Source: a virus
IMG/VR virus record: IMGVR_UViG_3300044683_000172
Coordinates: 1 to 64,000 of that record
DNA length: 64,000 nt
Reading direction: 5' to 3' (one strand)
Position numbers and translations under genes: made by a program. Below are positions 14,017 to 47,090 of this stretch, in pieces. The notes beneath the pieces are model-generated. The model ran no database searches. It was not told the DNA's origin and saw nothing but the letters and a program-made list of their open reading frames with translations. Numbering within the stretch: position 1 is the stretch's first letter; each line of letters opens with the position of its first letter.

Positions 14017-14229
14017 TTGAAAATCTTTCTCAAGTTGGCGTTGATTCTCGCCATGGTGATGCTGATCTCCTTCATGTTGGGAGTCGTCTCGCCGATCCTT
14101 ATCAACTCCGATTCGTGGATCGGCATTGCCGTGCTGCCATTCGTGTGGTTGGCCGTAATCGGCGCCAACATCGTCGTGATCAAGCTTACTTTCTTCTCAA
14201 CCCTCCAACAACAAAAGGAGAACAAATGA
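14017..14229 (+). CDS. small two-TM membrane protein (possible NfeD-like partner of the SPFH protein)
   Basis: 70 aa, two hydrophobic helices. Overlaps the start of the SPFH gene. Confidence 0.5.
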   Translation: MKIFLKLALILAMVMLISFMLGVVSPILINSDSWIGIAVLPFVWLAVIGANIVVIKLTFFSTLQQQKENK

Positions 14230-26872: not shown

Positions 26873-27010
26873 ATGATCAAAAGAAATGGCACATCGATCA
26901 TCTTTGCTTTCTTCGCGCTGATGTCGATCTTTGGTGGTGAAAAGGGCGCTGCGCTCGCATTCTTCTTCTTTTGCGGATTGACTTTGGATTTGAAGAGAGG
27001 GTGTGAGTGA
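26873..27010 (+). CDS. small membrane peptide
   Basis: 45 aa, hydrophobic (IIFAFFALMSIFGG). Confidence 0.3.
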   Translation: MIKRNGTSIIFAFFALMSIFGGEKGAALAFFFFCGLTLDLKRGCE

Positions 27011-27027
27011 AACGAGAAGAGAATGAA

Positions 27028-27852
27028 ATGTTGGACCAAATCAAATTCACTTCCGAGCACGAATTGCCTGTGCAATCCCTAAAGAGATCAGGGATTTACC
27101 GCATCGTATCGCCAAGCGGAAATTTCTATGTAGGAAGTGCTGTTGAAATTCGAAAACGATGGCGCAATCACAAGCGTCAACTTATCTCTGGCGTTCACCA
27201 CAACAAACCGCTGCAAGCTGCTGCCAAAAAGTACGGTTTGGAAAGCCTGCGATTCGAGATCATCGAGCACTGCGATTCTGATGTGCTCATTAACAGGGAA
27301 CAGTTTTACATCGACGCGCTGCGCCCTAAGTACAACACGTGTTTGGTGGCCGGAAGCCCACGCGGCGTGAAGCGTTCCGAAGAGACGAAGGCGAAGGTGC
27401 GCGCCGCGAATGTCGGCAGGAAGCACTCCGAAGAGACGAAGGCAAAACTGAGTGCCGCGAAGATCGGTAAGAGGCTTTCTGAGGACCACAAAGCGAAGTT
27501 GAGCGCGGCACGAATCGGCAAGATCGGCAAGAAGCATTCCGAAGAGACAAAGGCGAAGATGAGTGCGGCACACACCGGTAAGAAGTTTTCTGAGGAGCAC
27601 AAGGCGAAGATGAGCGCCGCGAATATCGGCAAGAAGCATTCCGAAGAGGCAAAGGCAAAAATGAGCGCGACACGAACCGGTAAGAGGCTTTCTGAGGAGC
27701 ACAAGGCAAATATGAGCGCCGCGCTTACCGGCAGGAAGCTTTCTGAGGAGCACAAGGCGAAGCTGCGCGCAGCGCGTCTGGCCTATTTGTCAAGGCGCAA
27801 CGGCGAGATTGGCACTTCGCTCGGATTTTCTTTCCCTGCTGATTCACTTTGA
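27028..27852 (+). CDS. GIY-YIG homing endonuclease with about 10 tandem NUMOD3-like repeats
   Basis: GIYRIVSPSGNFYVGSAVEIRKRWRNH...E catalytic module, then repeated SEE(T/H)KAK(M/L)SAA..GKKHS units (repetitive also at the DNA level, 27360-27780). Confidence 0.8.
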   Translation: MLDQIKFTSEHELPVQSLKRSGIYRIVSPSGNFYVGSAVEIRKRWRNHKRQLISGVHHNKPLQAAAKKYGLESLRFEIIEHCDSDVLINREQFYIDALRPKYNTCLVAGSPRGVKRSEETKAKVRAANVGRKHSEETKAKLSAAKIGKRLSEDHKAKLSAARIGKIGKKHSEETKAKMSAAHTGKKFSEEHKAKMSAANIGKKHSEEAKAKMSATRTGKRLSEEHKANMSAALTGRKLSEEHKAKLRAARLAYLSRRNGEIGTSLGFSFPADSL

Positions 27853-29210: not shown

Positions 29211-29975
29211 ATGTCGCAAAACGAAGAACAAGCCAAGGCAGCACGGGACGAAGCAAAGGCCGCCAAGAAGGCCCAGCGCGAAGCCGAGAAGCAGCGCAAG
29301 GCCGAGGAAAAGGCCGCGAAGGACGCCGAGAAGCAAGCGCAGCGCGAAGCCGAACTGAAGAAGAAGGAAGAAGAGCGCGCCGCCAAGGCTGCCGAAAAGC
29401 AGGCCGAACGCGAAGCGAAGAACCGCGAAATGGCCGAGAAGCGCGAACAGGAAAAGGCCGCCAAGGCTGCTGAACGCGAAGCCGCGAAGGCCGAGGCCGC
29501 TGCGAAGAAGGAAGCCGACAAGGCCGCGAAGAAGGAAGCGCGCGAAGCCGAGAAGGCTGCTGCGAAGGCCCAGAAGGAAGCCGACAAGGAAGCGAAGAAG
29601 GCTGCCCGTCTGGCCGAAATCGAAGAGCGCAAGCAGGCTCGCAAGGCGGAAGCCAAGGCGCGTGCCGAGGCTGTGGCGGCCCGCAAGGCCGAAACCAAGG
29701 GCGACGGTCGGCGCGCGAAGGCAACGCACATCGTGTACAACGGCCATGGCCTGAGCAACCCGCAAGCAATGTCGGTGCGCGGCAATGTGCTGGCGAAGAT
29801 CAAGGAAAACTGCCCGGTCGGCGAACAAGTCAGCATCGAGCAAGTGGCCGCGTTCTGCAAGCCCGTTCTGTACGGCGCGAACGTTCGAAGCTTCCTGGCC
29901 AAACTCGAAGAGATGGGCCATCTGGATTTCGTGACCGTGTCCAGCGAGCCGGCTGCGGAACCTGAAGCCGCGTGA
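29211..29975 (+). CDS. Lys/Ala/Glu-rich coiled-coil protein (histone H1-like or KfrA-like low-complexity N-region) with globular C-terminal domain
   Basis: About 160 aa of AKAAEKQAEREAK-type repeats, then a compact C-terminal domain (HIVYNGHGLSNPQAMSVRGNVLAKIKENCPVGEQVSIEQVAAFC...). Confidence 0.6.
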   Translation: MSQNEEQAKAARDEAKAAKKAQREAEKQRKAEEKAAKDAEKQAQREAELKKKEEERAAKAAEKQAEREAKNREMAEKREQEKAAKAAEREAAKAEAAAKKEADKAAKKEAREAEKAAAKAQKEADKEAKKAARLAEIEERKQARKAEAKARAEAVAARKAETKGDGRRAKATHIVYNGHGLSNPQAMSVRGNVLAKIKENCPVGEQVSIEQVAAFCKPVLYGANVRSFLAKLEEMGHLDFVTVSSEPAAEPEAA

Positions 29976-30123: not shown

Positions 30124-31107
30124 ATGGCTAAATACAATCGCATTATCGGCGCAGGCTTGGCTGGTCTGATCGCGGCGTGTCACTTCAAGGATGCCGAGAT
30201 TTACGAGGCCGGTCCACGGCAAGACAACCACAAGGCTCTTTTGCGATTTCGCGACGAGTCGGTGTCCAATCTGACTGGCATCCCGTTCAAACCGGTCACC
30301 GTCGATAAGGCGATCTACTTGGATGGCTGTTCGCCGGGATCGCGTGAGCGCGGCCTGTATGGCGCCTGTACCATCCAGATGGCCAATTGGTATGCCACGA
30401 AGACGACCGGACACGTTGCCGGCCGCAGCATCTGGAACCTGGAGCGGGCGACTCGCTATATCGCGCCGGAAGATTTCCATCAACGTCTCGTGGACAAGGC
30501 TGGATTCCTGGTCAACTACGAAAAGCCGATTGATACGATCCACTCGTGGGACAAACATCATTACAACACCATCAGCACCGCACCTTTGCCGGTCATGTTG
30601 AAGGCAGCTGGAATCGAGTTGCCGCATCTTCAAACGGAAAAGGCGCCGATCAAGGTTCAGCGTTTCCGCATTCCGAAGTGCGATGTTTACCAAACGATTT
30701 ATTTCCCTGAGATGGAATTGCGAGTGTTCCGAGCTTCCATAACCGGAGATATGTTGATCATCGAATCGGTGATGGAAAAGCACAATTCGGTGTTCGATTG
30801 GTGGTACATGCCAGATGCCGAATTGGATGTGGTTCTCACCGCGTTTGGTCTGAACCATCTACTGATGGACATCGAGCACCTGGAAGATGTTGAGCAGAAG
30901 TATGGCAAGATCGTGCCGATATCTTCCGAGCAGCGTCACGCGGTTCTCTATGAGCTCACCGAGCGATTCGGCGTCTATTCGCTGGGGCGATTCGCGACGT
31001 GGCGGAACATCCTTCTGGACGATGTGGTGAAGGACATCGCCGTGATCGACCGACTCATCAAGGCGTCCGACTATGGGCGCCTCCACATGACTTCGGAGAT
31101 GGTATGA
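30124..31107 (+). CDS. FAD/NAD(P)-binding flavoprotein of the UDP-galactopyranose mutase / amine-oxidase-like fold
   Basis: N-terminal IIGAGLAGLIAA dinucleotide-binding motif. C-terminal GRFATWRNILLDDVVKDIAVIDRLI resembles the UGM/amine-oxidase C-terminal signature (GRLGTYRYLDMD-like). Confidence 0.55.
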   Translation: MAKYNRIIGAGLAGLIAACHFKDAEIYEAGPRQDNHKALLRFRDESVSNLTGIPFKPVTVDKAIYLDGCSPGSRERGLYGACTIQMANWYATKTTGHVAGRSIWNLERATRYIAPEDFHQRLVDKAGFLVNYEKPIDTIHSWDKHHYNTISTAPLPVMLKAAGIELPHLQTEKAPIKVQRFRIPKCDVYQTIYFPEMELRVFRASITGDMLIIESVMEKHNSVFDWWYMPDAELDVVLTAFGLNHLLMDIEHLEDVEQKYGKIVPISSEQRHAVLYELTERFGVYSLGRFATWRNILLDDVVKDIAVIDRLIKASDYGRLHMTSEMV

Positions 31108-31463
31108 TCAGCAAGCTTGATAAGGCTCAAATGGCTGAATACGGCAACGCCAGCGTCGTGTGCACCGCTCCTGGTCCGTTGAACGGAAAGATGGCGTTGG
31201 CGCGGCCGCATCCGACTCAGCCGGACATGTTCTTGGTCCAGTTCAACGATCTGAATTCGCGTTGGCCTAACACTACGTTTGATGATTTCAACTACGAGTG
31301 GCAGCCGCGCAACTGCCTTGGCTTCGGGTGGACGGTCTTCCAATCCAAATTCTTCAAGTCGATGACGAAAGAGGATTTGGACAAGCGCGTGAAATTCCGA
31401 TGCTTGCCGTCTGGGTTGCCCGTTGGGCGACTCATATCTGTGACCACCAAATTCCCAGATTGA
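31104..31463 (+). CDS. hypothetical protein
   Basis: Start overlaps the upstream stop (ATGA). Confidence 0.45.
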   Translation: MISKLDKAQMAEYGNASVVCTAPGPLNGKMALARPHPTQPDMFLVQFNDLNSRWPNTTFDDFNYEWQPRNCLGFGWTVFQSKFFKSMTKEDLDKRVKFRCLPSGLPVGRLISVTTKFPD

Positions 31464-31507
31464 CGTGAACATCAGCGATGAGGCATAATAACCTCATCGC
31501 TTTTGCG
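31460..31507 (+). promoter_or_regulatory. promoter-like TTGACG-18nt-CATAAT whose -10 lies in the loop of a GC hairpin (gcgatgagg...cctcatcgc + TTTT), a combined terminator and promoter
   Basis: The hairpin plus T-run terminates the upstream gene. The motif GAGGCATAATAAC is also found at 29135-29147. Confidence 0.45.
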
Positions 31508-31529
31508 TTTCTCAGAAAGGAATAGAACT

Positions 31530-31715
31530 ATGAAGGCCGTACTTGCTTCCATCCGACAGTTGGCTTCCATCGCCGTTCAAGAGGCCGTCGCTCGCATCAA
31601 GGATCGTTCTGTCAGCGAGCCGCCGACGTTCTACTGCCAGGAGTTGGATTCGTTTACCGGAGATGACGGCCTTCAGTATGTTGTTGAAATCACTGTACGT
31701 CTGAAGGAGGATTGA
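31530..31715 (+). CDS. hypothetical protein
   Basis: RBS cagaaaggaatagaactATG. Confidence 0.4.
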   Translation: MKAVLASIRQLASIAVQEAVARIKDRSVSEPPTFYCQELDSFTGDDGLQYVVEITVRLKED

Positions 31716-31889
31716 ATGTACAAGGTTCTGGTCACGACGATTTATATCGGTTGCGGCTCGGGAGCAGCCGTCCATACGTCTACTATCGAATTCGATAGCC
31801 ACGCGCTCGCTACCGCTGCCGTTCGTATCATCAACGAAAACCACTGCGACAATAACTACAGCCAGAAAGCCCTGGCCCTCTTCCAATGA
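31716..31889 (+). CDS. small hypothetical protein (57 aa)
   Basis: RBS aaggaggattgaATG. Stop overlaps the ThyX-like start. Confidence 0.3.
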   Translation: MYKVLVTTIYIGCGSGAAVHTSTIEFDSHALATAAVRIINENHCDNNYSQKALALFQ

Positions 31890-32716
31890 AAGTCACCCTC
31901 ATATCCCACACCCAAAACGCTCTGGAGCTTCTGGTTGATACGAAGCACACGCGTATGCGCGGCAAGACGGCCGATCAGATGACTGAAGCCGAACGATATG
32001 AGCACTTCCAGTACATGCTTGATACGATCCGCTCGCCGTTCGAGTTCGTTGATTACATCTTCCAGATCGAAGGCGTGTCCAAGAACTTCACGCATCAACT
32101 GGTTCGCACACGTACGGGCGCGTATCAGCAGGAAACCAGTCGCGCGCTGGAAATATCGGCCTTCGATACGATCAAGCCGAAGGCATTCGATGGAAACGGA
32201 CAGATAGATACGCCCTTGAATGAAGTTTGGGCGGACGCAATCGCCGATGCAGACGCCAACTACAAACAGTTGATTGCAATGGGCGCCGACCTTCAAGACG
32301 CCCGCGCCATCCTTCCGTCCAACATGGCCACCAAGATCATGGCCAAGTTTAATCTCCGGACGCTTTCTGATATGGCCAAGAACCGCCTGTGCGCACGTAC
32401 ACAAGGTGAGTATCAGGAAGTCTTTCGGGCAATGCGCGCGGCGGTGTTGGAAGTTCATCCCTGGTCCGACCCGCTCTTGCAGGTGGCGTGCGTTGCGACA
32501 GGGCAATGCGCCTTTCCGCGTTGGGGATCGAAGGTTATCGAGACGACGGCAAACGTACTGGGCCGCGATACCGTCATCGGTCAGAAGTATCAGTGTCCGC
32601 ACTATCGGCCTTGGATGGACCTGTCCGCTCAGAAGGAAGCATTGCGCGTATCCTTCTGGTCCAAGGAAGAAATCGCGCAAGCCAACCCCGTCGCCAAGAA
32701 TGGCGTTTCCATGTAA
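31886..32716 (+). CDS. ThyX-family (flavin-dependent thymidylate synthase-like) enzyme with divergent signature (RTR..G....S.R instead of RHR..S....S.R)
   Basis: HQLVRTRTGAYQQETSRA aligns to the ThyX RHRxxSxxxxSxR motif. The second block NLRTLSDMAKNRLCARTQGEYQEV aligns to the ThyX dUMP-binding NxRxLxxxxxxRxxxxAQxEI block. Confidence 0.7.
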   Translation: MKVTLISHTQNALELLVDTKHTRMRGKTADQMTEAERYEHFQYMLDTIRSPFEFVDYIFQIEGVSKNFTHQLVRTRTGAYQQETSRALEISAFDTIKPKAFDGNGQIDTPLNEVWADAIADADANYKQLIAMGADLQDARAILPSNMATKIMAKFNLRTLSDMAKNRLCARTQGEYQEVFRAMRAAVLEVHPWSDPLLQVACVATGQCAFPRWGSKVIETTANVLGRDTVIGQKYQCPHYRPWMDLSAQKEALRVSFWSKEEIAQANPVAKNGVSM

Positions 32717-32724
32717 GGAACTTC

Positions 32725-33858
32725 ATGAACATCATCAACGAAACTCCCAAGCGACCGCTCTACATCTTCGACCTGGATGGCACCGTTTCATCGGACGGCT
32801 GGCGCAAGCATCTTCTGCCGAAACACCCGGACGGCCAGCCGCGTGCGGAGAATGATGGAACGATTCCCCACGATGCGTACGACAAGTACCATTCCCTGCT
32901 GGGCGGCGATATGCCCATGTACGCTGGATTCAAGTGCCTGAAGCGTGCCATTGCTTTGGGCGCCTTCATCGTTTTCTTCACGGCACGGCCGACGTCTTAT
33001 CACGAAAAGACTGTTGAATGGCTGGAAAAGTTTCTCGGCAACTTCGATTACTGGCTTTACATGCGTGACGATGATGATCTTCGCGGCTCCGTTGAGCTCA
33101 AGTTGGATATGTTGAGCCGTCTCAAAGAAACGCTGAAGTTGAGCGCCCATTGGCACTTGGAAACCATCGCCATCTACGATGACCGAGCCGATGTTCTTGG
33201 AGCAATCGGCAGCACCGGCATCAACGCCTTCCGTATCACCGAGAACAATGAAGTTGTGATGGTCTCGTATCACAACGGACATAAATTCCCGAAGGAGATG
33301 TCTGCTCTTCACGAACAGATCAACGCCGGAGCCGCCGGGAATTGCGACCCCAACAAAAAACAAGACGCGAACGTCAAGGCCATCGAAGAAACGAAAACCA
33401 TTGGCGATATCTCGATCAAGACGCGAACCGAATTCGTCGCGCCTGCCAATCACGTCAGCGGATTCGTTGATAAACCCGAATCCCTGGCCAAAGCCATTGG
33501 AAATGCATGGGAGGCTGTGATGGGCCTTACCGGGAAGCCCGTTCGAGAAACGAGCGCGGCCGACCTGCTGGACGAAATGGCCGCGACGTTCCGAGAGCGC
33601 AACAAGGTGTACGGCAACAACGAGAAGCTGGTTGGCGACGTGATGTCCGCGATGTTTCCGAATGGCGTGACGCTCCGGACGGCAGCAGACTTTCGCATGT
33701 GGCACCTGTTTGAATTGAAGGTGGTGAAGTTGACACGTTTCGCTGTCTCCGGCCTGCAGCACCAAGACTCCATCCACGACGACGGCGTTTATAGCGCCAT
33801 GTGTGAACGTCTGGTTGGTACCCACAACATTCAAATCAACCAGGACGAATCGGAGTGA
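32725..33858 (+). CDS. HAD-superfamily phosphatase (likely (deoxy)nucleotide 5'-phosphatase) with additional ~180-aa C-terminal domain
   Basis: Motif I LYIFDLDGTV. Motif II FFTARPT. Later YDDRADVLG (Asp pair). Confidence 0.6.
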   Translation: MNIINETPKRPLYIFDLDGTVSSDGWRKHLLPKHPDGQPRAENDGTIPHDAYDKYHSLLGGDMPMYAGFKCLKRAIALGAFIVFFTARPTSYHEKTVEWLEKFLGNFDYWLYMRDDDDLRGSVELKLDMLSRLKETLKLSAHWHLETIAIYDDRADVLGAIGSTGINAFRITENNEVVMVSYHNGHKFPKEMSALHEQINAGAAGNCDPNKKQDANVKAIEETKTIGDISIKTRTEFVAPANHVSGFVDKPESLAKAIGNAWEAVMGLTGKPVRETSAADLLDEMAATFRERNKVYGNNEKLVGDVMSAMFPNGVTLRTAADFRMWHLFELKVVKLTRFAVSGLQHQDSIHDDGVYSAMCERLVGTHNIQINQDESE

Positions 33859-33860
33859 CC

Positions 33861-34268
33861 ATGGAAGACAAATTCTCTGAAGACAATCCGAAATACGGAA
33901 TGCCACCGTTGAATGATTATGACCGCCGAAAGGAGTTGCAGGAAGCCGATTTGTTGCCTGCTTACAGTCACTTCTCCCAGCTGAATCCGGCCGAGCAAGA
34001 GCGGCTGACGCTTTTGTACGAAGAGGCCAGCGAAGTCATCAAGGAAGTGGCCAAGATTCAGCGACACGGCTTTGAGTCGCGCAATCCGGATAATCCGATG
34101 GCGAACACCAACCGGCAGAATTTGGCCATCGAAATCGGTCAACTTCAGTTTATCATCAACGTTCTGAAAGAGCGCGGCGATGTGGACGGAAAATTGGTTG
34201 ATCACGTCGCCAAGGAGCGCCATCTTTCCATCAACCGTTACCTCCACCACAACAAATTTCGAGCATGA
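33861..34268 (+). CDS. MazG-like nucleotide pyrophosphohydrolase
   Basis: LYEEASEVIKEVAKI...IEIGQLQFIINVL fits the EExxE...E..D/Q all-alpha NTP-PPase pattern. Confidence 0.6.
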   Translation: MEDKFSEDNPKYGMPPLNDYDRRKELQEADLLPAYSHFSQLNPAEQERLTLLYEEASEVIKEVAKIQRHGFESRNPDNPMANTNRQNLAIEIGQLQFIINVLKERGDVDGKLVDHVAKERHLSINRYLHHNKFRA

Positions 34269-34984
34269 ACTCCTTTGTGAACAAAACGTCTGACAACCGA
34301 CTCGCCGGCAAATCCTTCATCGTCACCGGCGCTGGCGCTGGTCTGGGCGCGGCGATCTGCCGACGCCTGAATGAATCCGGAGCGCGTACGTACGGCATCG
34401 ACATCAAGTGGGGAAGCGATGTGCGTGACCCGGCCATCTGGGATGCTTACAAGGGATGGGATATCGACGGCCTGATCAACTGCGCTGGCATCAACGCCAA
34501 CGACTGGTTTGAGGATGTTAGCCCTTTCCAGTTGCAGAACGTTATGGAAGTGAACGCATTCTCGATGGTGTACGCCGTGCAAGGTTTGCTGCCGCAGCTG
34601 CACAAATCGTCGGGCGTCGTCGTCAACATCGTATCCAACGCCGCTAGTATGCCGATGACCTCGTCTCTGGCCTACAACATGTCCAAGGCGGCAGCGCTGA
34701 TGGCCACGAAGCAGATGGCGCACGAGCTTACGAAGAAATACGGGATCACCGTCTTCAGCGTCTCGCCGAACAAGCTGAAAGGCACCGAGATGTCCAAGCA
34801 GATCGAGGCCGACGTGCAACGCGTTCGCGGCTGGACGCCCGAATTCGCCGCCGACTATCAGGCCAAGTCGCTTATGCACGGGCTGGAGACGCCGCCGGAA
34901 ATGGTCGCTGAGGTCATCGTCAATGCTCTAGAAACCGGCGCGTGGAAGTATATGAGCGGGACTGACATTCCGGTCGGCAAGTAA
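34265..34984 (+). CDS. short-chain dehydrogenase/reductase (SDR)
   Basis: TGAGAGLG cofactor motif and YNMSKAA (YxxxK) catalytic motif. Confidence 0.75.
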   Translation: MNSFVNKTSDNRLAGKSFIVTGAGAGLGAAICRRLNESGARTYGIDIKWGSDVRDPAIWDAYKGWDIDGLINCAGINANDWFEDVSPFQLQNVMEVNAFSMVYAVQGLLPQLHKSSGVVVNIVSNAASMPMTSSLAYNMSKAAALMATKQMAHELTKKYGITVFSVSPNKLKGTEMSKQIEADVQRVRGWTPEFAADYQAKSLMHGLETPPEMVAEVIVNALETGAWKYMSGTDIPVGK

Positions 34985-35022
34985 GCGCGTATCATCAACT
35001 TTCTCAACTTCAAGGATTCACC

Positions 35023-35691
35023 ATGACCCAACTGAAATTCCGCATCGAACAAATCGCCCTGGCTCCTGCCAACACCGGCCGCGCCATCAAGCTTCTTTCC
35101 GACCTCGGCCTCACCGACTGGTTCAAGGACAACGTGGTGGCCAGCGGGCATGTGTACGGCGTTCCTGGCCAGAACAGCGCCCTTTTGCAGTTCAACTACC
35201 AAGCCGGCAACGGCAACGATCCGGCCGGCAAGCCGTTGGAGTTGGAAGTGCTGAAGTACGTGGACGGCAACAACTGGCTGAACTATCGCCCGGACAACAC
35301 CACGTCGCATCTGGGCATGCACGTCACGAGCGAAGAACTGTACGCCTTCCAGAAGTATTTCGAGCGCGAAGGCATCCCCGTTGCCCAGGCCGTTTGGACG
35401 GATGCGCACACAAATCCCGCCATCGCCGGCAAGCGTTTCTACAACTACGTCATCTTCGATACACACCAGATCATCGGCGTCGATCTGAAGTTCATCGTGC
35501 GCCATGACGTCACGCAAGTGGAGCAGAAAGAATCGCGCTTGCATCGCAATGGCGAAATCACGAGCAATGTCAAGGTCGAAATCGATACGAAGGACATCGA
35601 CCGTGCCGTCAAGCGCGCTCTGTCCGCCAAGAAGACTGTCGCCAAGCCTGCCAAGCCGGTCGGGCGCAAAACCGCTGTGCGCTCGAAATAA
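35023..35691 (+). CDS. VOC/glyoxalase-like two-module protein with Lys-rich C-terminal tail (tentative)
   Basis: Two beta-alpha-beta-like modules (FRIEQIALAP...; HLGMHVTSEELYAFQKYFEREGIPV...). Basic tail KKTVAKPAKPVGRKTAVRSK. Assignment by pattern only. Confidence 0.4.
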   Translation: MTQLKFRIEQIALAPANTGRAIKLLSDLGLTDWFKDNVVASGHVYGVPGQNSALLQFNYQAGNGNDPAGKPLELEVLKYVDGNNWLNYRPDNTTSHLGMHVTSEELYAFQKYFEREGIPVAQAVWTDAHTNPAIAGKRFYNYVIFDTHQIIGVDLKFIVRHDVTQVEQKESRLHRNGEITSNVKVEIDTKDIDRAVKRALSAKKTVAKPAKPVGRKTAVRSK

Positions 35692-36342: not shown

Positions 36343-36500
36343 ATTGTGACATCTGCAAAAAGCCGTTGAGCGAAGACCCGAAGAAGGACAATTACAACTG
36401 CGGCGGTACATGCATGCGCTGCATGGCGTCGTTTGATGATCCTGAGTGCAAGAAGGCCATCGCTGAAATCGACGGTATTGAGTTGGAGGATGAGCAATGA
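36339..36500 (+). CDS. small zinc-ribbon protein (53 aa)
   Basis: CDICKK...CGGTCMRC. Overlaps both neighbours by 4 nt. Confidence 0.35.
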   Translation: MNCDICKKPLSEDPKKDNYNCGGTCMRCMASFDDPECKKAIAEIDGIELEDEQ

Positions 36501-39349
36501 ATCTACCACAACTGCGAGTCCGCACCGGCTATTCTTTCCGCAATGCCTATGGGAGAATGGAAGAAGTCTTCGCGCGACTGAAAGAAATCGAATCTCCGTC
36601 AGCCGCTATCGTTGACTGGGGCACATGGGGGCATGTACGTTTCGAGAAGGAAGCGAAAAAGACCGGCATTAAGCCTATGTTTGGGATGGAAGTTCCGATC
36701 ATCCAAACCATGGAAGACGGCGAGAAATCTAAGTTCAAACCTGTCGCATGGATGCTGGCTGCCGATACGCGCGCCTTCTATCGCGGAACGACGAAGGCCT
36801 GGGCCGAACGAGGGTTGTCGCCGGCCGAGTTCGCAGCGCTGCCCGGTGTCGTACGCTTCGCGGGCGCAGCATCCCGGGTCTTGACCCCAGACCAGTACGA
36901 TTTCATCGACGTCAACCCGGCATCGATTTCCGAAGCGGCACGAGGCGTGTGGATCGCGCGCGAAACTGGCAAGCCTCTGGTCATCACCTGTTACAACGAC
37001 ATGCCGAAGCCGGATCACATGGACTTCGCGTATGCGTGGGAAGTTCGGGATTCGGTCGGCCATCGCTTCTTGGACGGCATCGATGAGCTTTGGAAGCGAC
37101 TTCAGCGCGTGATGTCGTGGAGCGAATTCCAAGCCGCAATCGACAACACCGTGGAAATTGCCGACAAGCTTGCTGGCAAGGAACTGCCCAAGGCACCTCT
37201 GATTCACCTGGAAGGCGATCTGGTTGCCCTGATCCGAGAAGGGCAGCAATCGCGCTTGCAGCGAGGTCACATCGCGGAATGGACCCAGGAATATGAGGAT
37301 CGTGTTCAAGAAGAGATCAAGCAAATTCAGCTGAAGAACTTCGACAGCTACTTTCTTGTTGTTGCTGATCTCGTCCGATTTGCAAAACAGCACATGCTGG
37401 TCGGACCCGCTCGCGGCTCGGCGGCAGGTTCATTGGTCTGCTATCTTCTCGGCATCACAGAAGTCGATCCTATTCCCCACGACCTTCTGTTCCAGCGGTT
37501 CATCGACATCAGCCGCGCTGACCTTCCGGATATCGACATCGACTTTGCCGACAACAAGCGTCATATGGTGTTCACGTACTTGCAAGAAAAGTACGGAACG
37601 CAGAACGTCGCCAAGCTTGGGAATATCAACACGCTGAAGGCCAACTCTGTGATGGCGCAAGTCGGCAAGCGTTTCGGCATTTCTTTCGGCGAAACTTCCC
37701 AAGTCAAAAATGCGCTCATTGAATACTCTTCTGGCGATGCTCGATACGGAAAAGGTTTGGAAGATACCTTCTCCACCACCGGACCCGGACAGGAATTCAC
37801 CCAGAAGCATCCGGACGCCGCGCGATGCATGGGCGACCTCGAAATCCATCCAAGTCATACAGGCGTACACGCTGCGGGCATCCTCGTCTGTAATGATCCA
37901 ATCAGCGATTACTGCACGGTCACCGAAGAAGGCGTGGCACAAATCGATAAGCCGGATTCTGAGTATCTGAACCTGCTGAAGATCGACGCGCTTGGCTTGC
38001 GTACTCTGGGCATCATCGATGATACGGGCGTCGTCACGGCCGAAGAACTCTACAGTCTGCGACTTGACGATCCCGCCGTGTTCGAAATCCTCAATGAGGA
38101 CAAGGTGAGTGGCATCTTCCAGTTTGAAGGGGATGCCGTTCGATCTGTGACGCGCTCTGTTAACGTGGATCGGTTCTCGAAAATCGACAACTTGACAGCT
38201 CTGGCGCGGCCCGGCCCGCTCGCGTCCGGTATGGCCCAAAAGTACATCGCCCGCGCCAACGGATCGGAGCCTGTTACGTACGATGTTCCGCAGCTGGAGA
38301 AGTACCTAAAGGACACGTACGGCGTTTTCCTTTACCAAGAGCAGATCATGTCCGTGGTGAAGGAAATTGGCTTGTTCGACTGGGTGAAGACTTCTGCTGT
38401 CCGAAAGGCCATGTCTGGTCGAAAGGGCGAAGAATACTTCAACCAGATGGGTGCCGACTTTGTTGCAGGCGCGACTTCGCAAGGAGTGCCGGAAGATCAG
38501 GCCAAGAAGATTTGGAACGAGATGGTGACGTTCGGCTCTTGGGGCTTCAATAAATCGCACTCGGTCTCATATGCCGTCGTGACGTATTGGACTTGCTGGC
38601 TCAAGCGTTATCATCCACTGGAGTTTGCCGCAGCCTGTCTGCGCGCGGCGAAAGACGATGATCAAGTAATCGCAATTCTTCGAGAATTGGCCAAGGAAGG
38701 AATCCATTACACGCCAATCGATCCGTCGTTCAGCGATATGAATTGGAAGGTGGCCGATGGCCGACTGATCGGCGGCATCATGAATGCCAAGGGTTTTGGA
38801 CCGGCCAAGGCGATGAAGTACATCCAGGATCGCGAGAAATGGAAGAGGCTTCGCGACTTGGGGCCGCTGACGAAGAAGGATACGGCGCTGTACCTGAAGC
38901 ACGTCGAATCGCTCGCCAAGGCTGAGGTCCAATACTCCGACTTGAATGAAGCGCACACCAAGTGGGGCCACTTCTATCGGAACCCGGAACTGGCCGGCGT
39001 TACGTCCGGCAACCCTATCGTCAACATGAAGTCGGTGAAGGACAAAGACGATGGTCTGATCATCGCCAAGCTGACCAAGAAGGTTTTGGCCGACGAGAAC
39101 GAAGCCATTCGGATCAAAAAGCGCGGCGGGAAAGTCATGACCGGCCAGACGCAGTTCATCGACTTGATGATGGTGGACGATTCCGCCGACTCGCCGATGC
39201 GTTTCCGTATCCGCCCTAACAAGTTCCTTGACCTAGGCAAGCCCATCGCGGAAACCGCTCCGATCAATTCTTGGTTTCTGATCAAAGCATGGAAGATCGA
39301 AGGAATTGATATGTTCATCGTTAAGAACATAAAGAGGATCGACCAATGA
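36497..39349 (+). CDS. dnaE: DNA polymerase III alpha subunit (DnaE-type replicative polymerase)
   Basis: 950 aa. PHP-like N-terminus. GPARGSAAGSLVCYLLGITEVDP polymerase-core motif. Confidence 0.9.
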   Translation: MNLPQLRVRTGYSFRNAYGRMEEVFARLKEIESPSAAIVDWGTWGHVRFEKEAKKTGIKPMFGMEVPIIQTMEDGEKSKFKPVAWMLAADTRAFYRGTTKAWAERGLSPAEFAALPGVVRFAGAASRVLTPDQYDFIDVNPASISEAARGVWIARETGKPLVITCYNDMPKPDHMDFAYAWEVRDSVGHRFLDGIDELWKRLQRVMSWSEFQAAIDNTVEIADKLAGKELPKAPLIHLEGDLVALIREGQQSRLQRGHIAEWTQEYEDRVQEEIKQIQLKNFDSYFLVVADLVRFAKQHMLVGPARGSAAGSLVCYLLGITEVDPIPHDLLFQRFIDISRADLPDIDIDFADNKRHMVFTYLQEKYGTQNVAKLGNINTLKANSVMAQVGKRFGISFGETSQVKNALIEYSSGDARYGKGLEDTFSTTGPGQEFTQKHPDAARCMGDLEIHPSHTGVHAAGILVCNDPISDYCTVTEEGVAQIDKPDSEYLNLLKIDALGLRTLGIIDDTGVVTAEELYSLRLDDPAVFEILNEDKVSGIFQFEGDAVRSVTRSVNVDRFSKIDNLTALARPGPLASGMAQKYIARANGSEPVTYDVPQLEKYLKDTYGVFLYQEQIMSVVKEIGLFDWVKTSAVRKAMSGRKGEEYFNQMGADFVAGATSQGVPEDQAKKIWNEMVTFGSWGFNKSHSVSYAVVTYWTCWLKRYHPLEFAAACLRAAKDDDQVIAILRELAKEGIHYTPIDPSFSDMNWKVADGRLIGGIMNAKGFGPAKAMKYIQDREKWKRLRDLGPLTKKDTALYLKHVESLAKAEVQYSDLNEAHTKWGHFYRNPELAGVTSGNPIVNMKSVKDKDDGLIIAKLTKKVLADENEAIRIKKRGGKVMTGQTQFIDLMMVDDSADSPMRFRIRPNKFLDLGKPIAETAPINSWFLIKAWKIEGIDMFIVKNIKRIDQ

Positions 39350-41405: not shown

Positions 41406-41738
41406 ATGGCACGAGTATTCATCCCACAGGTAGTCACGCGATTCAATCCCGTCTCGAAGACAAAAGAGCCGGTTTTTGACTTCAGCGCCGCCGCGCAGCA
41501 TGGGACTCTGATCAACGTGCTGAGTGAAGAGGACAATCCCCTGTTTCTGGCCCATCTTGCTCCAAAGATTCGAAAGGCTTTGGATGATTTCAAGGAAGAG
41601 GATCGGTTGCTGGCCGTTGGCGACCCCTCTGTGATCGCCATTTGCAGCGGCATCATCCTGCGGCGACAACGAGTCCTCAACATGCTTAAGTGGGATCGCA
41701 AGCTGCAAGTTTACATCAATGTGGAGGTAAGACCATGA
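41406..41738 (+). CDS. hypothetical protein
   Basis: 110-aa ORF. Confidence 0.45.
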   Translation: MARVFIPQVVTRFNPVSKTKEPVFDFSAAAQHGTLINVLSEEDNPLFLAHLAPKIRKALDDFKEEDRLLAVGDPSVIAICSGIILRRQRVLNMLKWDRKLQVYINVEVRP

Positions 41739-42376
41739 GTGACGAACCGATTCAACAGAATCTTGTTACAGACGGATTTGACGATCCGGAAAGCAACGGC
41801 AGCATTCCGACATCCGCCTACTTCGAAGACACAGGTCCGGTCAGCAATGAAGAGCCTGCGACTTTGGAGGCTCTGAGCTTGATGGCCCGGAAGAGTGGCG
41901 AGTTGGAGGCCGAAATCATGGCGCTGGAAGTTCAACTGGCCGAGAAGACGGACCAACTGAACATCATCAAGCGCAAGAGCATGCCCGACATCATGGAGCG
42001 TCTGGGCTTTGAATCGTTCAAGATGGAAGATGGCCGAACCATTGAGATCGAGAAGAAGATCAATGCATCCATCAGCGCCGAGAACAAGCCGCTGGCATTC
42101 GCTTGGCTCCGCGAGCACAACTGTGACGGCATCATCAAGATGAAGGTCGGCACCGACTTCGGCAAGGGCGAAAGCGACTTGGCTGAAAAGGCAATCAAAG
42201 CGCTGCGCGAAGCCGGTTTCGATCCGAACGTTGACGAGAACGTTCACCCGGCCACGCTCAAGGCATTCGTCCGCGAGCAACTGGAAGAAGGCACCGATAT
42301 TCCAATCGATGTCTTCGGCATCTTCGAATTCAAAGAGGCAAAAATCAAATTGCCTCGGACATCGAAGCGCAAGTAA
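41735..42376 (+). CDS. hypothetical acidic coiled-coil protein (recombination or replication accessory?)
   Basis: RBS ggaggtaagaccATG. Precedes the SSB-like gene. Confidence 0.5.
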   Translation: MSDEPIQQNLVTDGFDDPESNGSIPTSAYFEDTGPVSNEEPATLEALSLMARKSGELEAEIMALEVQLAEKTDQLNIIKRKSMPDIMERLGFESFKMEDGRTIEIEKKINASISAENKPLAFAWLREHNCDGIIKMKVGTDFGKGESDLAEKAIKALREAGFDPNVDENVHPATLKAFVREQLEEGTDIPIDVFGIFEFKEAKIKLPRTSKRK

Positions 42377-42432
42377 TCTAGCGCTTCCTCAACCGAGTAG
42401 TTTCAATTCAGTTTCAACAAGGAGCATCAAAT

Positions 42433-43287
42433 ATGGCAAAGAAAGAAGAGAATGCAGTGGTGGAAGTGAAGGCTGGCGCGCTGGCCACGGTTCCGGAATT
42501 CATGGACGTCGCCGACTTCGGCGCGGGCTTCGAAGGCACCGACAAGGACTCCTATGCGATCCCGTTCCTTCAAGTCCTGCAGAAGATGTCGCCGCTGGTC
42601 GATGAAGACAGTCCCAAGTACATCGAAGGCGCCAAGGCCGGCATGTTCTTCAATACCGTCACTGGTCGCCTGTACGATGGCAAAAACGGCCTGACCGTCA
42701 TCCCGTGCGCCTACAAGCGTTCCTTCATCCAGTGGGGTGCACGCGAGGCTGGCGGCGGCTTCAAGGGCGAGTTCACGCCTGAGCACGCCGAGCAGATGGT
42801 GGCTGAAGGCAAGTGGCTGCAGATCGAGAACCGCATCTACGTTCCGGACGAAAACGGCAAGGTCGATCCGAAGAAGCAGGACTACGTTGCCGACACGCGA
42901 TCCCACTTCATCGTCGGCATCGATCCCGAAACCAACGAAACGTTCCGCGCGATCCTCTCGCTGGCTTCCTCGCAGATCAAGGCCAGCCGCAACCTGATGA
43001 CGTCGCTGAGCCAGAAGAAAGTCACGCTGCCGGACGGCTCGAAGCGCACGCCGCCGACGTTTGCCAACCTGGTCCAACTGACGACCGTCGGCCAGACGAA
43101 CGATCAGGGCTCCTGGTCCGGCGTCGTCTTCAAACTGGACGGCACGATCACTGACAAGGCGCTGTTCGAAGAGGCCAAGGACTTCCACAAGTCCATCGCG
43201 GCCGGCGAAGTGAAGGTGGACTACAGCAAGGCGGCAGACGATGGCACCAGCGCCAGCGACAAGCCGCAAGAAGCCGAAGGGTTCTAA
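42433..43287 (+). CDS. single-stranded DNA-binding protein, T7 gp2.5-like (acidic C-terminal tail ending in Phe)
   Basis: 284 aa. C-terminus ...DDGTSASDKPQEAEGF (acidic tail with terminal aromatic) typical of the gp2.5/DUF2815 SSB family. RBS aaggagcatcaaatATG. Confidence 0.5.
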   Translation: MAKKEENAVVEVKAGALATVPEFMDVADFGAGFEGTDKDSYAIPFLQVLQKMSPLVDEDSPKYIEGAKAGMFFNTVTGRLYDGKNGLTVIPCAYKRSFIQWGAREAGGGFKGEFTPEHAEQMVAEGKWLQIENRIYVPDENGKVDPKKQDYVADTRSHFIVGIDPETNETFRAILSLASSQIKASRNLMTSLSQKKVTLPDGSKRTPPTFANLVQLTTVGQTNDQGSWSGVVFKLDGTITDKALFEEAKDFHKSIAAGEVKVDYSKAADDGTSASDKPQEAEGF

Positions 43288-43889: not shown

Positions 43890-44453
43890 ATGACTGAATA
43901 CAACATTTCCATCCAAGACCTTTTCGCTGCCGTCGTTGCCTGGGCGAAAGCGCGCAATCTCATCGCAGGCAGCGATCCGAAGACGCAAACGCTCAAGACC
44001 GTCAGCGAATTCGCCGAGATCGGCGCTGGCATCTTCAAAGAAGACATCGACGAAATCAAGGACGGATTGGGCGACACCCTTGTCACCGTGATCATCGTCG
44101 CGGCGCAGCTTGGCAAGGACGCATATGATGCATTCGAAACGAAAATCAGCCTGGAAAGCGAGCTTGGCGAAGATTTCGAAATGTACAACTACGAACTGGC
44201 AAGCGCAACGCTGGGGCTGATGGCCGACAACGTCATCAAGGGGCAAGTCAACGACTACATGATCAATCTCGCCGTGTTCATCCAGCTGCTTGCCGATATC
44301 GCCGAATCCCGCAGTTGCAGCCTTCACGACTGTCTGGCCGCTGCCTACGATGAGATCAAGGACCGCAAGGGCGTGATGTACCACGGCGCCTTCATCAAGG
44401 ATTCGGACCCGCGCTATGCAGGCGCCTGCGCCGAACTTGGCCTGGAGGCTTAA
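43890..44453 (+). CDS. MazG-family nucleoside triphosphate pyrophosphohydrolase
   Basis: VSEFAEIGAGIFKEDIDEIKDGLGDTLVTVIIVAAQLG fits the MazG E.GE...E..ELGD consensus. Confidence 0.65.
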   Translation: MTEYNISIQDLFAAVVAWAKARNLIAGSDPKTQTLKTVSEFAEIGAGIFKEDIDEIKDGLGDTLVTVIIVAAQLGKDAYDAFETKISLESELGEDFEMYNYELASATLGLMADNVIKGQVNDYMINLAVFIQLLADIAESRSCSLHDCLAAAYDEIKDRKGVMYHGAFIKDSDPRYAGACAELGLEA

Positions 44454-45668: not shown

Positions 45669-45836
45669 TCGCCGTTTTCGTGGGCCGAAAGTCGCGGCCA
45701 GACGGTCGCGACGACCTAAACTTTCGCCTTATTTTGTGTACGTTCGGGAGCCAATTTTAAGTCAGAATCGAGTAGTAACGTTCATTTGTATCATATATGC
45801 TTTAATCATCACAGAAAGATTAGAAAGGATCAAAAC

Positions 45837-46220
45837 ATGGACCATACTATCACGCTCAACCGAAACGGCGCAACAAGGACGATTCCGGTTGGCTTCAGCT
45901 GGACAACGCTTTTCTTTGCCATCGCGCCTTCGATCATCCGCAATCACTGGTCGTTCGTTTGGTATTGGTGCTTTGCGAACTTTCTGTCCATTCTTGCGGT
46001 CTTAGCCTGTGTCAATCTCGCTGAGGCGTATCCGGAAGCCGCGAGCAACTTCAGCATTCTCAGCGTCTTCGCCCTGTTCTTCGGGCACGTTTGGTGCGCC
46101 GTCTACCGAAACGAAATGCTGCTGAAGCACCTGATCAAGGATGGCTGGCAACTCGGATTCATTCAGCCGGTTAAAGTGAAGGCGGCTGTAGAGCTAAACG
46201 GCGAATCGGCCAATCAATAA
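45837..46220 (+). CDS. multi-TM membrane protein
   Basis: 127 aa with three or more hydrophobic helices. Confidence 0.45.
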   Translation: MDHTITLNRNGATRTIPVGFSWTTLFFAIAPSIIRNHWSFVWYWCFANFLSILAVLACVNLAEAYPEAASNFSILSVFALFFGHVWCAVYRNEMLLKHLIKDGWQLGFIQPVKVKAAVELNGESANQ

Positions 46221-46230
46221 GGAGGGCATC

Positions 46231-46926
46231 ATGCTCAAGCGTATTTCCAAGTTCAAACTCAATGGATGGTTCGTTCTCGGCCTGTTCATCGCGGCCATCC
46301 TCTTGGCCAACGTCGCAGCCCAGCGCGGCAAAGACGCCCAAAAATCGGCCGGCAATATCATTGCTTCTCTGCCCGTTTCGGATGCAAAGATTGTTGACGG
46401 AACGATCCAAAAGAAGCTCAAGGTGACCGTCGATCCCAAGAATGGCCAGCAGATGTATGGATCGACAAACTATCTGGCTTGGCGTGACGAAATCACAGGC
46501 GGCAAATATTGGAATTTGATGACGTTCAGTTCCGATCAAACGCAGGCCATTTCCATCGTCCAGAACCCCAGCGGGCGCGGCGCGGTTTTCGTGTTTCCGA
46601 GGTGGCTCGCCGCCGACATGGATGGCAACGTCATCGTTCAAGCGCGCTTCACAATGCGCGATGGAACGGCCGTCGTTCGGGAGTACCGGGCGCGCCTGTC
46701 TGTCGTCCGCGAGACGATGAATCAGGCCGTGTTGCTGACGAAAGAAGCGTCCAATGACCTGGCAGCCCTCATGACGACATCCGTCCACGTCGCGGCCCGA
46801 GCGCCAGCCGCCAATGGCGAAGACACATTCATCCGGCTGCAGATCGACCCGGTTGATTGGATGGCGTCGATTCGAAATGAGCGGATTGTGCCGCTGGATG
46901 AAACGATAAACGGGAAGCAATCATGA
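46231..46926 (+). CDS. membrane-anchored periplasmic protein
   Basis: N-terminal TM WFVLGLFIAAILLANVAA. 231 aa. Confidence 0.5.
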   Translation: MLKRISKFKLNGWFVLGLFIAAILLANVAAQRGKDAQKSAGNIIASLPVSDAKIVDGTIQKKLKVTVDPKNGQQMYGSTNYLAWRDEITGGKYWNLMTFSSDQTQAISIVQNPSGRGAVFVFPRWLAADMDGNVIVQARFTMRDGTAVVREYRARLSVVRETMNQAVLLTKEASNDLAALMTTSVHVAARAPAANGEDTFIRLQIDPVDWMASIRNERIVPLDETINGKQS

Positions 46927-47090
46927 GGATTGCCCTGGTTTTTGTTCTTCTAGTGTTAACGGGATGTAGTACAATTCAGGAGCGCTATTCTCGCGCCTAT
47001 GAACGCCATCCCTGCGGCAACATCTGGGACTACTGCCCAGGAGATAACGAGTTCATTGACCAACTCAATAAGATTCTCCAGGGGAAATAG
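46923..47090 (+). CDS. small lipoprotein (55 aa)
   Basis: Lipobox VLTGC. Confidence 0.35.
   Translation: MRIALVFVLLVLTGCSTIQERYSRAYERHPCGNIWDYCPGDNEFIDQLNKILQGK

Follow-up and report, generated by a model that had tools for sequence, protein, structure and literature searches.

Thymidine hypermodification pathways have been described in phages phiW-14, SP10, ViI, M6 and PaMx11, where part of the T is replaced by derivatives whose bulky C5 groups block restriction enzymes, and the PaMx11 pathway includes a FAD-dependent enzyme, gp47 (PMC5889632, PMC8989533). These pathways use a ThyA-family dUMP hydroxymethylase, a P-loop 5-hydroxymethyldeoxyuridine (5-hmdU) DNA kinase and aGPT-Pplase transferases. 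The virion DNA of the Pbunaviruses F8 and 14-1 carries novel sugar-type hypermodified thymidines of 362 and 390 u, which take the place of about a quarter of the T and lie in a TG context (Yee et al., bioRxiv 10.1101/2025.03.31.646159). F8 DNA is cleaved by EcoRI, HindIII, XbaI, DraI and BsaI and is left uncut with BsgI, FspI, BmrI, ApaLI as well as NdeI, and all five resistant sites contain TG (bioRxiv 10.1101/2025.03.31.646159). The same preprint notes that such phages can be missed, being without known modification genes, and it names no biosynthetic genes (bioRxiv 10.1101/2025.03.31.646159); a literature search did not find a paper assigning genes to the Pbunavirus modification. Here we analyse a 64-kb window (positions 1 to 64,000 of IMG/VR record IMGVR_UViG_3300044683_000172), a piece of a 68.9-kb metagenomic myovirus, in which a block of six plus-strand genes lies among the replication genes. 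We tentatively propose that three of these genes, encoding a flavoprotein, a divergent ThyX and a HAD fusion protein (together, the trio), are the core that makes the TG-context, sugar-type hypermodified thymidine of F8 and 14-1, and that the window phage carries a related modification; the assignment is quite possible, if still somewhat short of probable. What we describe is as such a candidate phage thymidine hypermodification pathway built on a ThyX-fold enzyme and a partner flavoprotein.

The trio is the best available candidate because relatives of the window phage are modified without known modification genes, and because elimination of other pathway genes, the linkage of the three genes, the residues of the ThyX, the sparing of TG palindromes and the precedents in other systems all point to it. 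The block and the two genes that follow it are laid out as follows.

30124..31107, plus strand: FAD-type flavoprotein, 327 aa, with a predicted UDP-galactopyranose mutase (UGM)/protoporphyrinogen-oxidase-like fold; phrog_4828 (function unknown), no Pfam family
31886..32716, plus strand: divergent ThyX, 276 aa, with a Cys-rich C-terminal extension; Pfam Thy1 E 3.5e-31
32725..33279, plus strand: capless HAD phosphatase domain, residues 1-185 of the HAD fusion protein; DxDGT motif (FDLDGTV)
33280..33555, plus strand: variable low-confidence linker of the HAD fusion protein; predicted local distance difference test (pLDDT) <50 for much of residues 210-273, length and sequence differing among relatives
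33556..33858, plus strand: four-helix DUF6378-like C-terminal domain of the HAD fusion protein; helices 278-363 in the AlphaFold2 (AF2) model, pLDDT about 85-90
33861..34268, plus strand: MazG-like nucleoside triphosphate (NTP) pyrophosphatase, a sporadic accessory; phrog_4856 'NTP pyrophosphohydrolase' E 1.3e-14
34265..34984, plus strand: classical SDR oxidoreductase, optional and VOC-paired; Pfam adh_short E 1.5e-30, 106.6 bits
35023..35691, plus strand: VOC (Glyoxalase_4-like) protein with a Lys-rich C-terminal tail, optional and SDR-paired; homologs match PF13669
35779..36342, plus strand: DnaQ-like 3'-5' exonuclease; RNase_T E 2.4e-21; present in 50 of 50 loci in both locus sets described below
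36497..39349, plus strand: DnaE-type DNA polymerase III alpha; 62-74% identity to F8, Kyle and Pluto; present in 50 of 50 loci in both sets

The original prediction, made from the letters of the window, had placed six plus-strand open reading frames (ORFs) upstream of the exonuclease and DnaE genes, and all six are present at the coordinates given. Its reading of them as a UGM/amine-oxidase-fold flavoprotein, a ThyX-family protein with an altered signature and an SDR agrees with what we find, and so, less firmly, does its reading of a MazG and a VOC-like protein; for the HAD protein the extra C-terminal domain and the DxDGT motif are there, and the phosphatase domain is of PNKP type in Foldseek rather than of the NT5C type that had been expected.

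Like the phiW-14, SP10, ViI, M6 and PaMx11 pathways, one of which has a FAD-dependent enzyme, the block is a multi-enzyme cluster near replication genes. It differs in that the thymidylate-synthase-related enzyme has a ThyX fold in the window and belongs to the ThyA family in the 5-hmdU pathways. Pfam scans covered 46 window proteins and PHROG scans 20, with ORFs below about 110 aa and some structural genes left out. Among the 46 proteins, Pfam identified no ThyA-type hydroxymethylase, 5-hmdU (P-loop) DNA kinase, aGPT-Pplase or glycosyltransferase, nor any TET/JBP dioxygenase, radical SAM enzyme or methyltransferase, and neither the Pfam nor the PHROG scans of window proteins yielded an amino-acid:DNA transferase or a dNMP kinase. 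The only small-molecule enzymes recognisable among those 46 proteins are the block itself, a second MazG-like gene, a ligase and an endolysin.

F8 and 14-1 belong to the same broad lineage as the window phage and share with it the gene order from the Dda helicase to DnaE and the same sparing of TG-containing palindromes. The enzyme-like, non-replisome proteins common to the window and F8 come down to the trio and one MazG-like protein (F8 ORF49; window 43890-44453), while the other common proteins of unknown function are Pam3 gp32/33/34-like, DUF2786/DUF7168 and DUF6011 proteins. Unlike F8, the window phage, which is known from sequence alone, carries the extra SDR, VOC and MazG genes.

Linkage of the trio to the replication genes

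Megablast of the window against phage genomes gave no match, and close DNA relatives were not found among deposited phages. Its distant kin are Pbunavirus, Wifcevirus, Kyle and Pluto: by blastn, Luteibacter phage Pluto, Xanthomonas phage Carpasina, Pantoea phage Kyle and Burkholderia phage WTB match at about 68-71% nucleotide identity over conserved genes, a level also reached by about 290 Pseudomonas Pbunavirus genomes. Genes common to the window and F8, at 26-69% identity, encode the terminase, helicases, primases, DnaE (62%), the exonuclease (60%), the ligase, ThyX (61%), the flavoprotein (40%) and the HAD protein. The six-gene block sits between a Dda-like helicase and a TolA-like protein on one side and the DnaQ-like exonuclease and DnaE on the other. 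The gene order around it is identical in Pluto, Kyle, Pbunavirus Epa7 and F8, and the order of the block genes is kept across hundreds of phage genomes and contigs, so that the block is not a chance arrangement.

Linkage was counted in two locus sets. Flavoprotein alignment collected 80 IMG/VR loci, which were scanned for each block protein, and counts were taken on the 50 loci with at least 7 kb of downstream sequence. ThyX and the helical C-terminal domain of the HAD fusion are present in all 50 and the HAD domain in 48, while SDR occurs in 33, VOC in 34 and a MazG of the 33861-34268 type in a single locus. The reverse search, started with aligned variant ThyX sequences, recovered the flavoprotein in all 57 loci that had enough upstream sequence; the helical domain is present in 49/50, SDR in 34/50 and VOC in 33/50. 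SDR and VOC are hardly ever found apart, and their usual place is between the phosphatase and exonuclease genes. The complete F8 genome has the flavoprotein (ORF65), ThyX (ORF59) and the HAD fusion (ORF57) and lacks SDR, VOC and the 33861-34268 type of MazG. These counts point to a three-gene core (flavoprotein, ThyX and HAD fusion) with accessories, co-inherited with the DnaQ-like exonuclease and DnaE, rather than to the single six-gene pathway of the original prediction, of which the SDR and VOC members are absent in F8. In DnaE phages the exonuclease always accompanies the trio, DnaE is co-inherited as well, and the block constitutes the enzymatic portion of a replication cassette common to a large group of DnaE-encoding phages. 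Since F8, in which the modification was demonstrated, has neither SDR nor VOC, these are not essential to it and are at most tailoring enzymes.

The trio also occurs in two unrelated phages. Rhizobium phage RHph_Y65 (207 kb, Kleczkowskaviridae) has a flavoprotein of 36% identity located 1.5 kb upstream of a variant-type ThyX; a HAD that bears the same kind of helical C-terminal domain is found 4 kb downstream of this flavoprotein, and dUTPase and ribonucleotide reductase come after it. In Cronobacter podophage vB_CsaP_Ss1 (42 kb), the gene of a 43%-identical flavoprotein overlaps the start codon of the variant ThyX, after which come a HAD-DUF3310 fusion, the exonuclease and DnaE. The proteins common to Ss1 and the window at E <1e-5 are only the flavoprotein, ThyX, the exonuclease and DnaE, with the HAD protein positionally equivalent. 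A literature search on the DNA of Ss1 returned nothing useful.

The three core proteins

The ThyX of the block is at once clearly a member of its family and aberrant at the catalytic positions. Its Thy1 match scores 108.9 bits against a gathering cut-off of 24.8 and covers the whole profile (1-191), and it misses the TIGR02170 equivalog cut-off (82.7 vs 87.9 bits). The canonical signature RHR-X7-S-G-R-Y is replaced by RTR-X7-T-S-R-A. Relative to the Thermotoga maritima enzyme, for which the reference sequence used agrees with the PDB alignment over residues 49-213, Thr stands in place of both His79 and Ser88, Ser in place of Gly89, Ala in place of Tyr91 and Arg in place of His178, and position 53 is not His (Ile if ungapped; Arg, Lys or Pro with a one-residue gap). 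Retained in T. maritima numbering are Q75, R78, R80, Y84, R90, R147, N163, R165 and R174, which include the full dUMP- and FAD-binding set (Q75, R78, R80, R90, R147, N163, R165 and R174). As such, the phage protein shares the fold, the domain and the binding residues of canonical ThyX (TM0449, PF02511/TIGR02170) and, unlike it, adds a Cys-rich C-terminal extension and has a flavoprotein gene as partner.

The same substitution pattern is found in Pluto, Kyle, F8, RHph_Y65 and Ss1. Every flavoprotein-linked ThyX with a readable motif in the IMG/VR loci reads R-[TSN]-R...R-[AV], none having His79 or Tyr91; the RHR...S...RY signature was never found in this clade, and Tyr91 and His53 are absent in all relatives examined. 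In deposited phages, ThyX proteins at least 40% identical to that of the window occur only in the flavoprotein-carrying groups, with other phage ThyX at 31% or less. In ThyX, Tyr91 and Ser88 are called 'strictly conserved' and critical: when Y91 is mutated, flavin oxidation during methylation becomes 1000-fold slower, Tyr91 has been put forward as the general acid by which water leaves the flavin carbinolamine, and the conserved His53 is stacked against the folate pterin and hydrogen-bonded to Tyr91 (PMC11940539). A clade without Tyr91 and His53 and paired with a second flavoprotein is, on its residues, unlikely to be a routine thymidylate synthase, and it could still be a thymidylate synthase that works differently.

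The C-terminal extension of the ThyX (residues about 198-276; 32480-32716) has conserved Cys and His residues in a C-X5-C ... C-P-H arrangement common to Pluto, Kyle and F8. Its first and last Cys are kept in 29 IMG/VR homologs, and the extension is absent in RHph_Y65 and Ss1. The pattern could mark a metal site.

The flavoprotein has 2910 homologs, mostly on phage-sized contigs, and an identical copy of it is found on a JGI metagenome contig of 68,892 bp. In an alignment of 34 of its sequences the GxGxxG motif is invariant, as are many Arg, Lys and His residues. Its AF2 model is confident (pLDDT 88.5), and Foldseek places fungal UDP-galactopyranose mutase at the top (E 7e-10), followed by VioD, amine oxidases, halogenases and monoamine oxidase; by this model the protein is of UGM fold. 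Kinship to UGM at the level of sequence was considered and dropped: hhalign gave a probability of 2.9% with the N-terminus alone aligned, using a provisional E. coli Glf sequence, and a suspected resemblance between C-terminal motifs of the two proteins was likewise unsupported by hhalign. The Pfam scan found no GLF domain in the flavoprotein, and its profile matched PDB sequences in the dinucleotide-binding motif only. The phage protein is also shorter, at 327 aa, than UGM (365-510 aa).

The third core protein (32725-33858) consists, in an AF2 model of pLDDT 80, of a HAD domain, a disordered linker and a four-helix domain. Foldseek on the HAD domain returns the 3'-phosphatase of T4 PNKP (5uj0/1ltq) and Pnkp1 at the top (E 1e-5, target TM 0.76-0.78), so that the closest structures are phosphatases acting on polynucleotide ends, one of the precedents for the proposal. 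Pfam HAD_PNKP matches the window HAD at a sub-threshold E of 4.9e-5, and the same family is precomputed on most homologs. The capless DxDxT HAD fold is thus shared with the T4 PNKP 3'-phosphatase domain, whereas the phage protein lacks the kinase and carries a DUF6378-like domain instead. No kinase domain was found in it with Pfam, PHROGs or the AF2 model, and the database name 'polynucleotide kinase' is therefore unfounded. The DUF6378 (PF19905) match of the C-terminal domain is weak (E 0.099 for the window, 0.002 for F8), and a search of this domain against PDB sequences gave no match. It was also compared with DUF3310 (T7 gp1.7, Ss1 orf32) and with the dGTP_diPhyd_N domain of phiKMV gp25, and no profile similarity was found; we therefore claim an equivalent fusion position and not homology to the T7 nucleotide-kinase domain.

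Two further observations concern the HAD fusions of relatives. Ss1 orf32 (7710-8390 of the examined piece), the positional counterpart of the HAD fusion, joins a HAD phosphatase to DUF3310 (E 4e-9), which forms the C-terminal part of the T7 gp1.7 nucleotide kinase (gene 1.7, 8166-8756; E 4.5e-23), and a HAD-DUF3310 fusion also occurs in one IMG/VR locus; by analogy, this hints that the small helical domains fused to the HAD may bind or phosphorylate nucleotides. The HAD fusions of F8 (ORF57, 45771-46835) and 14-1 (ORF57, 45939-46955) are 79.7% identical, and their neighbours are 94-98% identical (exonuclease 97.8, DnaE 96.4, ThyX 93.8, flavoprotein 96.6). The differences, including an indel, fall mostly in the acidic linker. 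We considered this divergence as the cause of the difference in modification between F8 and 14-1 and set it aside as not diagnostic, being located in the linker and matched by several equally divergent early genes.

Palindrome avoidance and the proposed function of the trio

If TG sites are protected, palindromes containing TG (=CA) should escape the avoidance that affects others. We compared observed with maximal-order Markov expected counts for the 64 palindromes of six bases, TG being present in 16 of them, and tested the two classes against each other (Mann-Whitney). The observed/expected ratios were as follows.

Window: TG 1.01, others 0.73, p 0.005
F8: TG 0.96, others 0.73, p 0.045
14-1 (50 kb): TG 0.97, others 0.76, p 0.048
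Kyle: TG 0.87, others 0.66, p 0.043
Ss1: TG 0.96, others 0.69, p 0.001
Lambda (control): TG 0.73, others 0.63, p 0.28
phiKMV (control): TG 0.61, others 0.45, p 0.26
DMS3 (control): TG 0.74, others 0.61, p 0.38
LUZ24 (control): TG 0.62, others 0.71, p 0.73
phiCTX (control): TG 0.91, others 0.90
T7 (control): TG 0.65, others 0.62

In each of the 28 IMG/VR loci that span 20 kb or more, the TG class was the less avoided one (medians 0.90 and 0.66). The class difference (TG minus others) runs from +0.21 to +0.28 in the cassette carriers vs -0.09 to +0.16 in the six controls, and the contrast persists when G+C is matched: for palindromes in which four positions are G or C, the ratios in the window are 1.00 and 0.52. 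In the host-matched phage phiKMV, CAGCTG, CTGCAG and GTGCAC are entirely missing (expected 21, 17 and 11), and F8 has 24, 11 and 4 of them. The most depleted palindromes in the window are AGATCT, CCGCGG, CGATCG, CTCGAG, AGGCCT, GGATCC and GTCGAC. The ratio of TG to non-TG avoidance fails as a discriminator when taken alone, as controls such as phiKMV also spare TG somewhat; the groups are separated only by the absence of avoidance in the TG class and by the size of the class difference. The 19-kb fragment of RHph_Y65 has no palindrome avoidance of any kind and is hence uninformative. Indirectly, the pattern places the window phage beside F8 and 14-1, whose modification was found by experiment, and it extends to Ss1.

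In the pathway that we propose, the divergent ThyX would carry out a C5 reaction on dUMP whose outcome is something other than plain reduction to methyl, the flavoprotein would supply or process the attached group, and the HAD phosphatase would strip phosphate from an intermediate. The dedicated DnaE and exonuclease would replicate the modified DNA, and, the trio being co-inherited with them, one may speculate that polymerase and proofreading together set the TG context. Where present, SDR and VOC would be optional tailoring enzymes that alter the appended sugar-like group, and the MazG would be incidental. Of the original prediction that the block makes a modified pyrimidine, this keeps the product, to which the aberrant ThyX, the modified relatives and the TG-sparing palindromes point, and gives up both the logic of dTTP exclusion and MazG, SDR and VOC as essential parts.

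Several points weigh against this assignment. The chemistry is established in F8 and 14-1 only, and the trio is tied to it by inference alone. The ThyX keeps every substrate-binding arginine and so could still make dTMP, phages commonly carry ThyX beside their polymerase, and the RHph_Y65 trio, beside dUTPase and ribonucleotide reductase, stands in an ordinary nucleotide-supply context. The TG context implies a step that reads DNA sequence, which a nucleotide-level ThyX reaction alone cannot explain, and the block proteins contain no recognisable DNA-reading domain. Many small uncharacterised proteins common within the lineage could hold the real pathway. The palindrome test, moreover, is indirect: there are six controls, which also avoid TG slightly less, and the positives are phylogenetically related.

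The same points lead to the alternative that the block serves ordinary nucleotide supply, which we regard as plausible, though on balance doubtful. The ThyX, perhaps as a two-component enzyme with the flavoprotein as reductase or one-carbon supplier, would make dTMP for the replisome, the HAD fusion and MazG would be housekeeping proteins, SDR and VOC would be unrelated auxiliary metabolic genes, and the modification would be the work of other, anonymous proteins. The strong Thy1 domain with all dUMP- and FAD-binding Arg, Gln and Asn conserved, the embedding of the block among replication genes and the RHph_Y65 neighbours all fit this, and the strict coupling of flavoprotein and ThyX equally suits a partner that compensates for the lost Tyr91 and His53; ThyX is also reported to use free formaldehyde via a flavin carbinolamine (PMC8316439). 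Yet Tyr91, reported as strictly conserved and critical for methylation (PMC11940539), is absent clade-wide, and the ThyX falls below the NCBI equivalog cut-off. Nucleotide supply would also leave the Pbunavirus modification without any candidate enzyme and the TG-sparing signature that travels with the cassette into Ss1 unexplained. The TG context itself is explained best by a post-replicative route, in which a plain ThyX makes dTMP and, at TG sites of duplex DNA, the flavoprotein and PNKP-type phosphatase, joined by SDR and VOC in phages that have them, work on thymine or an intermediate, since the specificity seen in F8 needs a DNA-level step. The capless HAD domain is closest to enzymes working on polynucleotide ends, there are known FAD-dependent enzymes whose substrates are DNA bases (PaMx11 gp47, with the FAD-dependent lyase of M6/PaMx11 as an analogy), and the many invariant Arg, Lys and His residues of the flavoprotein and the Lys-rich tail of the window VOC protein are in keeping with such a route. 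We nevertheless think it unlikely, as an enzyme to activate the thymine methyl group (TET/JBP, radical SAM or 5-hmdU kinase) was not found among the scanned window proteins, as no flavoprotein of UGM-like fold is known to hydroxylate an unactivated methyl group, and as the clade-wide loss of catalytic residues in the linked ThyX would go unexplained.

The scheme of the original prediction followed SPO1 and phiW-14: a dUMP hydroxymethylase of ThyX type, acting together with a dTMP phosphatase and with dTTP/dUTP pyrophosphatases, would keep out canonical dTTP and replace T wholesale, and the redox enzymes would decorate the product. A divergent ThyX, a phosphatase and MazG-like genes are indeed present. 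In the relatives, however, replacement is confined to about 25% of T in a TG context and some three-quarters of T stay canonical (bioRxiv 10.1101/2025.03.31.646159); the block MazG occurs in 1 of 50 loci, the HAD is of PNKP rather than nucleotidase type, a dNMP kinase, a 5-hmdU DNA kinase and a transferase were not found in the window scans, and SDR and VOC are absent where modification was demonstrated. We consider wholesale replacement by dTTP exclusion highly improbable.

For the preferred assignment of the trio to the TG-context modification, one specific chemistry can be drawn by analogy. In canonical ThyX, a one-carbon unit is passed from flavin N5 to C5 of dUMP, and in UGM, flavin N5 forms an adduct with C1 of the sugar. 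Merging the two, ThyX and the UGM-fold flavoprotein might attach a sugar carbon C1 directly to C5 of dUMP via a flavin-N5 carbinolamine/iminium, giving a C-C linked polyhydroxyalkyl-dU; we offer this as a long shot. With sugar-phosphate donors, the fused phosphatase would remove the terminal phosphate, and, with the bulky Tyr91 and the folate-stacking His53 gone, a larger donor would find space. DnaE and the exonuclease would incorporate the analogue, and the balance of extension and proofreading could set the TG context. Both reported masses, and the descriptions given with them, can be obtained in this way, as dU 228 + pentose 150 - 18 + 2 = 362 (a reduced open chain, equal to thymidine plus a C4 sugar alcohol) and dU 228 + hexose 180 - 18 = 390 (cyclised, equal to thymidine plus a 'circularised aldopentose'), and 362 and 390 equally fit O-linked 5-hmdU ethers (258 + 122 - 18; 258 + 150 - 18), so that the arithmetic does not discriminate.

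Accessory and surrounding genes

The MazG-like label of 33861-34268 comes from PHROGs alone, the Pfam MazG match being below cut-off (13.2 bits against 22, E 0.11), and a homolog was not found in F8, Kyle or Ss1. Of the two further MazG-like genes of the original prediction, one is upheld and the other, a plus-strand ORF at 9250-9909, has no match in Pfam, PHROGs or NCBIfam. By eye, the latter contains GELGEASNVLKK and ELHDALAYIDL motifs (ExxE...ExxD-like), which recall all-alpha NTP pyrophosphatases, followed by about 110 residues.

43890..44453, plus strand: second MazG-like pyrophosphatase, conserved across the lineage; phrog_1992 E 1e-52, 37.5% identity to F8 ORF049

In the translation of the SDR gene the TGxxxGxG and S...YxxxK motifs are intact. 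Among PDB entries it comes closest to carbonyl reductases, butanediol dehydrogenases and FabG (about E 1e-12 to 1e-13), and no specific subfamily can be assigned. The VOC protein of the window has no Pfam match of its own, and 12 of 34 homologs match Glyoxalase_4 (PF13669; best E 1.5e-6); a search of its profile against PDB sequences gave no match. Invariant residues are Q10, E73, E75, H96, H100, H129, D154 and K156, among which Q10, E73/E75, H96/H100 and D154 are at what we take to be the positions expected of VOC metal ligands. The protein occurs in 55 phage records, none of them Pbunavirus, from Wifcevirus and Serratia, Xanthomonas, Pantoea, Luteibacter and Aeromonas phages. Its last 57 or so residues (35518-35691) form a Lys/Ala/Arg-rich tail, variable in length and sequence and lacking in many homologs, that might bind nucleic acid.

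Between the flavoprotein and ThyX genes lie two small ORFs and a putative terminator.

31104..31463, plus strand: small ORF, 119 aa, lineage-specific filler; no Pfam or PHROG match, 0 of 50 related loci
31474..31501, plus strand: terminator-like hairpin, 10-bp stem and T tract; a pattern match only, overlapping a promoter-like site at 31460-31489
31530..31715, plus strand: small ORF, 61 aa, lineage-specific filler; no Pfam or PHROG match, 0 of 50 related loci

A promoter and terminator scan of the region gave site counts no higher than the shuffled expectation.

Upstream of the block, a plus-strand gene at 29211-29975, immediately 5' of the flavoprotein, encodes a Lys/Glu/Ala-rich, charged, low-complexity protein annotated as 'TolA' in relatives, and a 'TolA'-type protein holds the same position in Pluto, Kyle, F8 and 17 of 50 IMG/VR loci. 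Immediately 5' of the Dda-like helicase lies a GIY-YIG homing endonuclease (27007-27852, plus strand) with five NUMOD3 repeats (Pfam E 1.5e-10 and 8e-28), probably a mobile insertion, as there is no counterpart there in Kyle, Pluto or Epa7. The early region also encodes a SPFH/Band 7 protein of 459 aa (13671-15050, plus strand; E 1.1e-22; phrog_200 'lipoprotein'), an unusual cargo for that part of a phage genome. Downstream, genes like those for Pam3 gp32, gp33 (DUF7307) and gp34 stand in tandem (41406-43287, plus strand). The gp34-like protein is 61% identical to F8 ORF51 and among the best-kept uncharacterised non-structural proteins of the lineage, which makes it another candidate for DNA transactions specific to this lineage.

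Pbunaviruses rank with the Pseudomonas phages most often chosen for therapy, and their hypermodification, found in 2025, determines END nuclease sensitivity and restriction resistance. An assignment of genes to this modification would be new, as the preprint names none; ours is a candidate on circumstantial evidence, and it turns an open gene question into a directly testable one. The candidate trio is conserved in thousands of phage contigs, including those of Wifcevirus coliphages and of phages of plant pathogens. If a ThyX without Tyr91 and His53 makes a product other than dTMP, this would be new flavin chemistry on a nucleotide and a new route to modified DNA, independent of the scheme of ThyA, kinase and transferase. 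If the product is plain dTMP, made with the partner flavoprotein, the pair would still be a novel, two-component version of an enzyme under study as a target for antibiotics.

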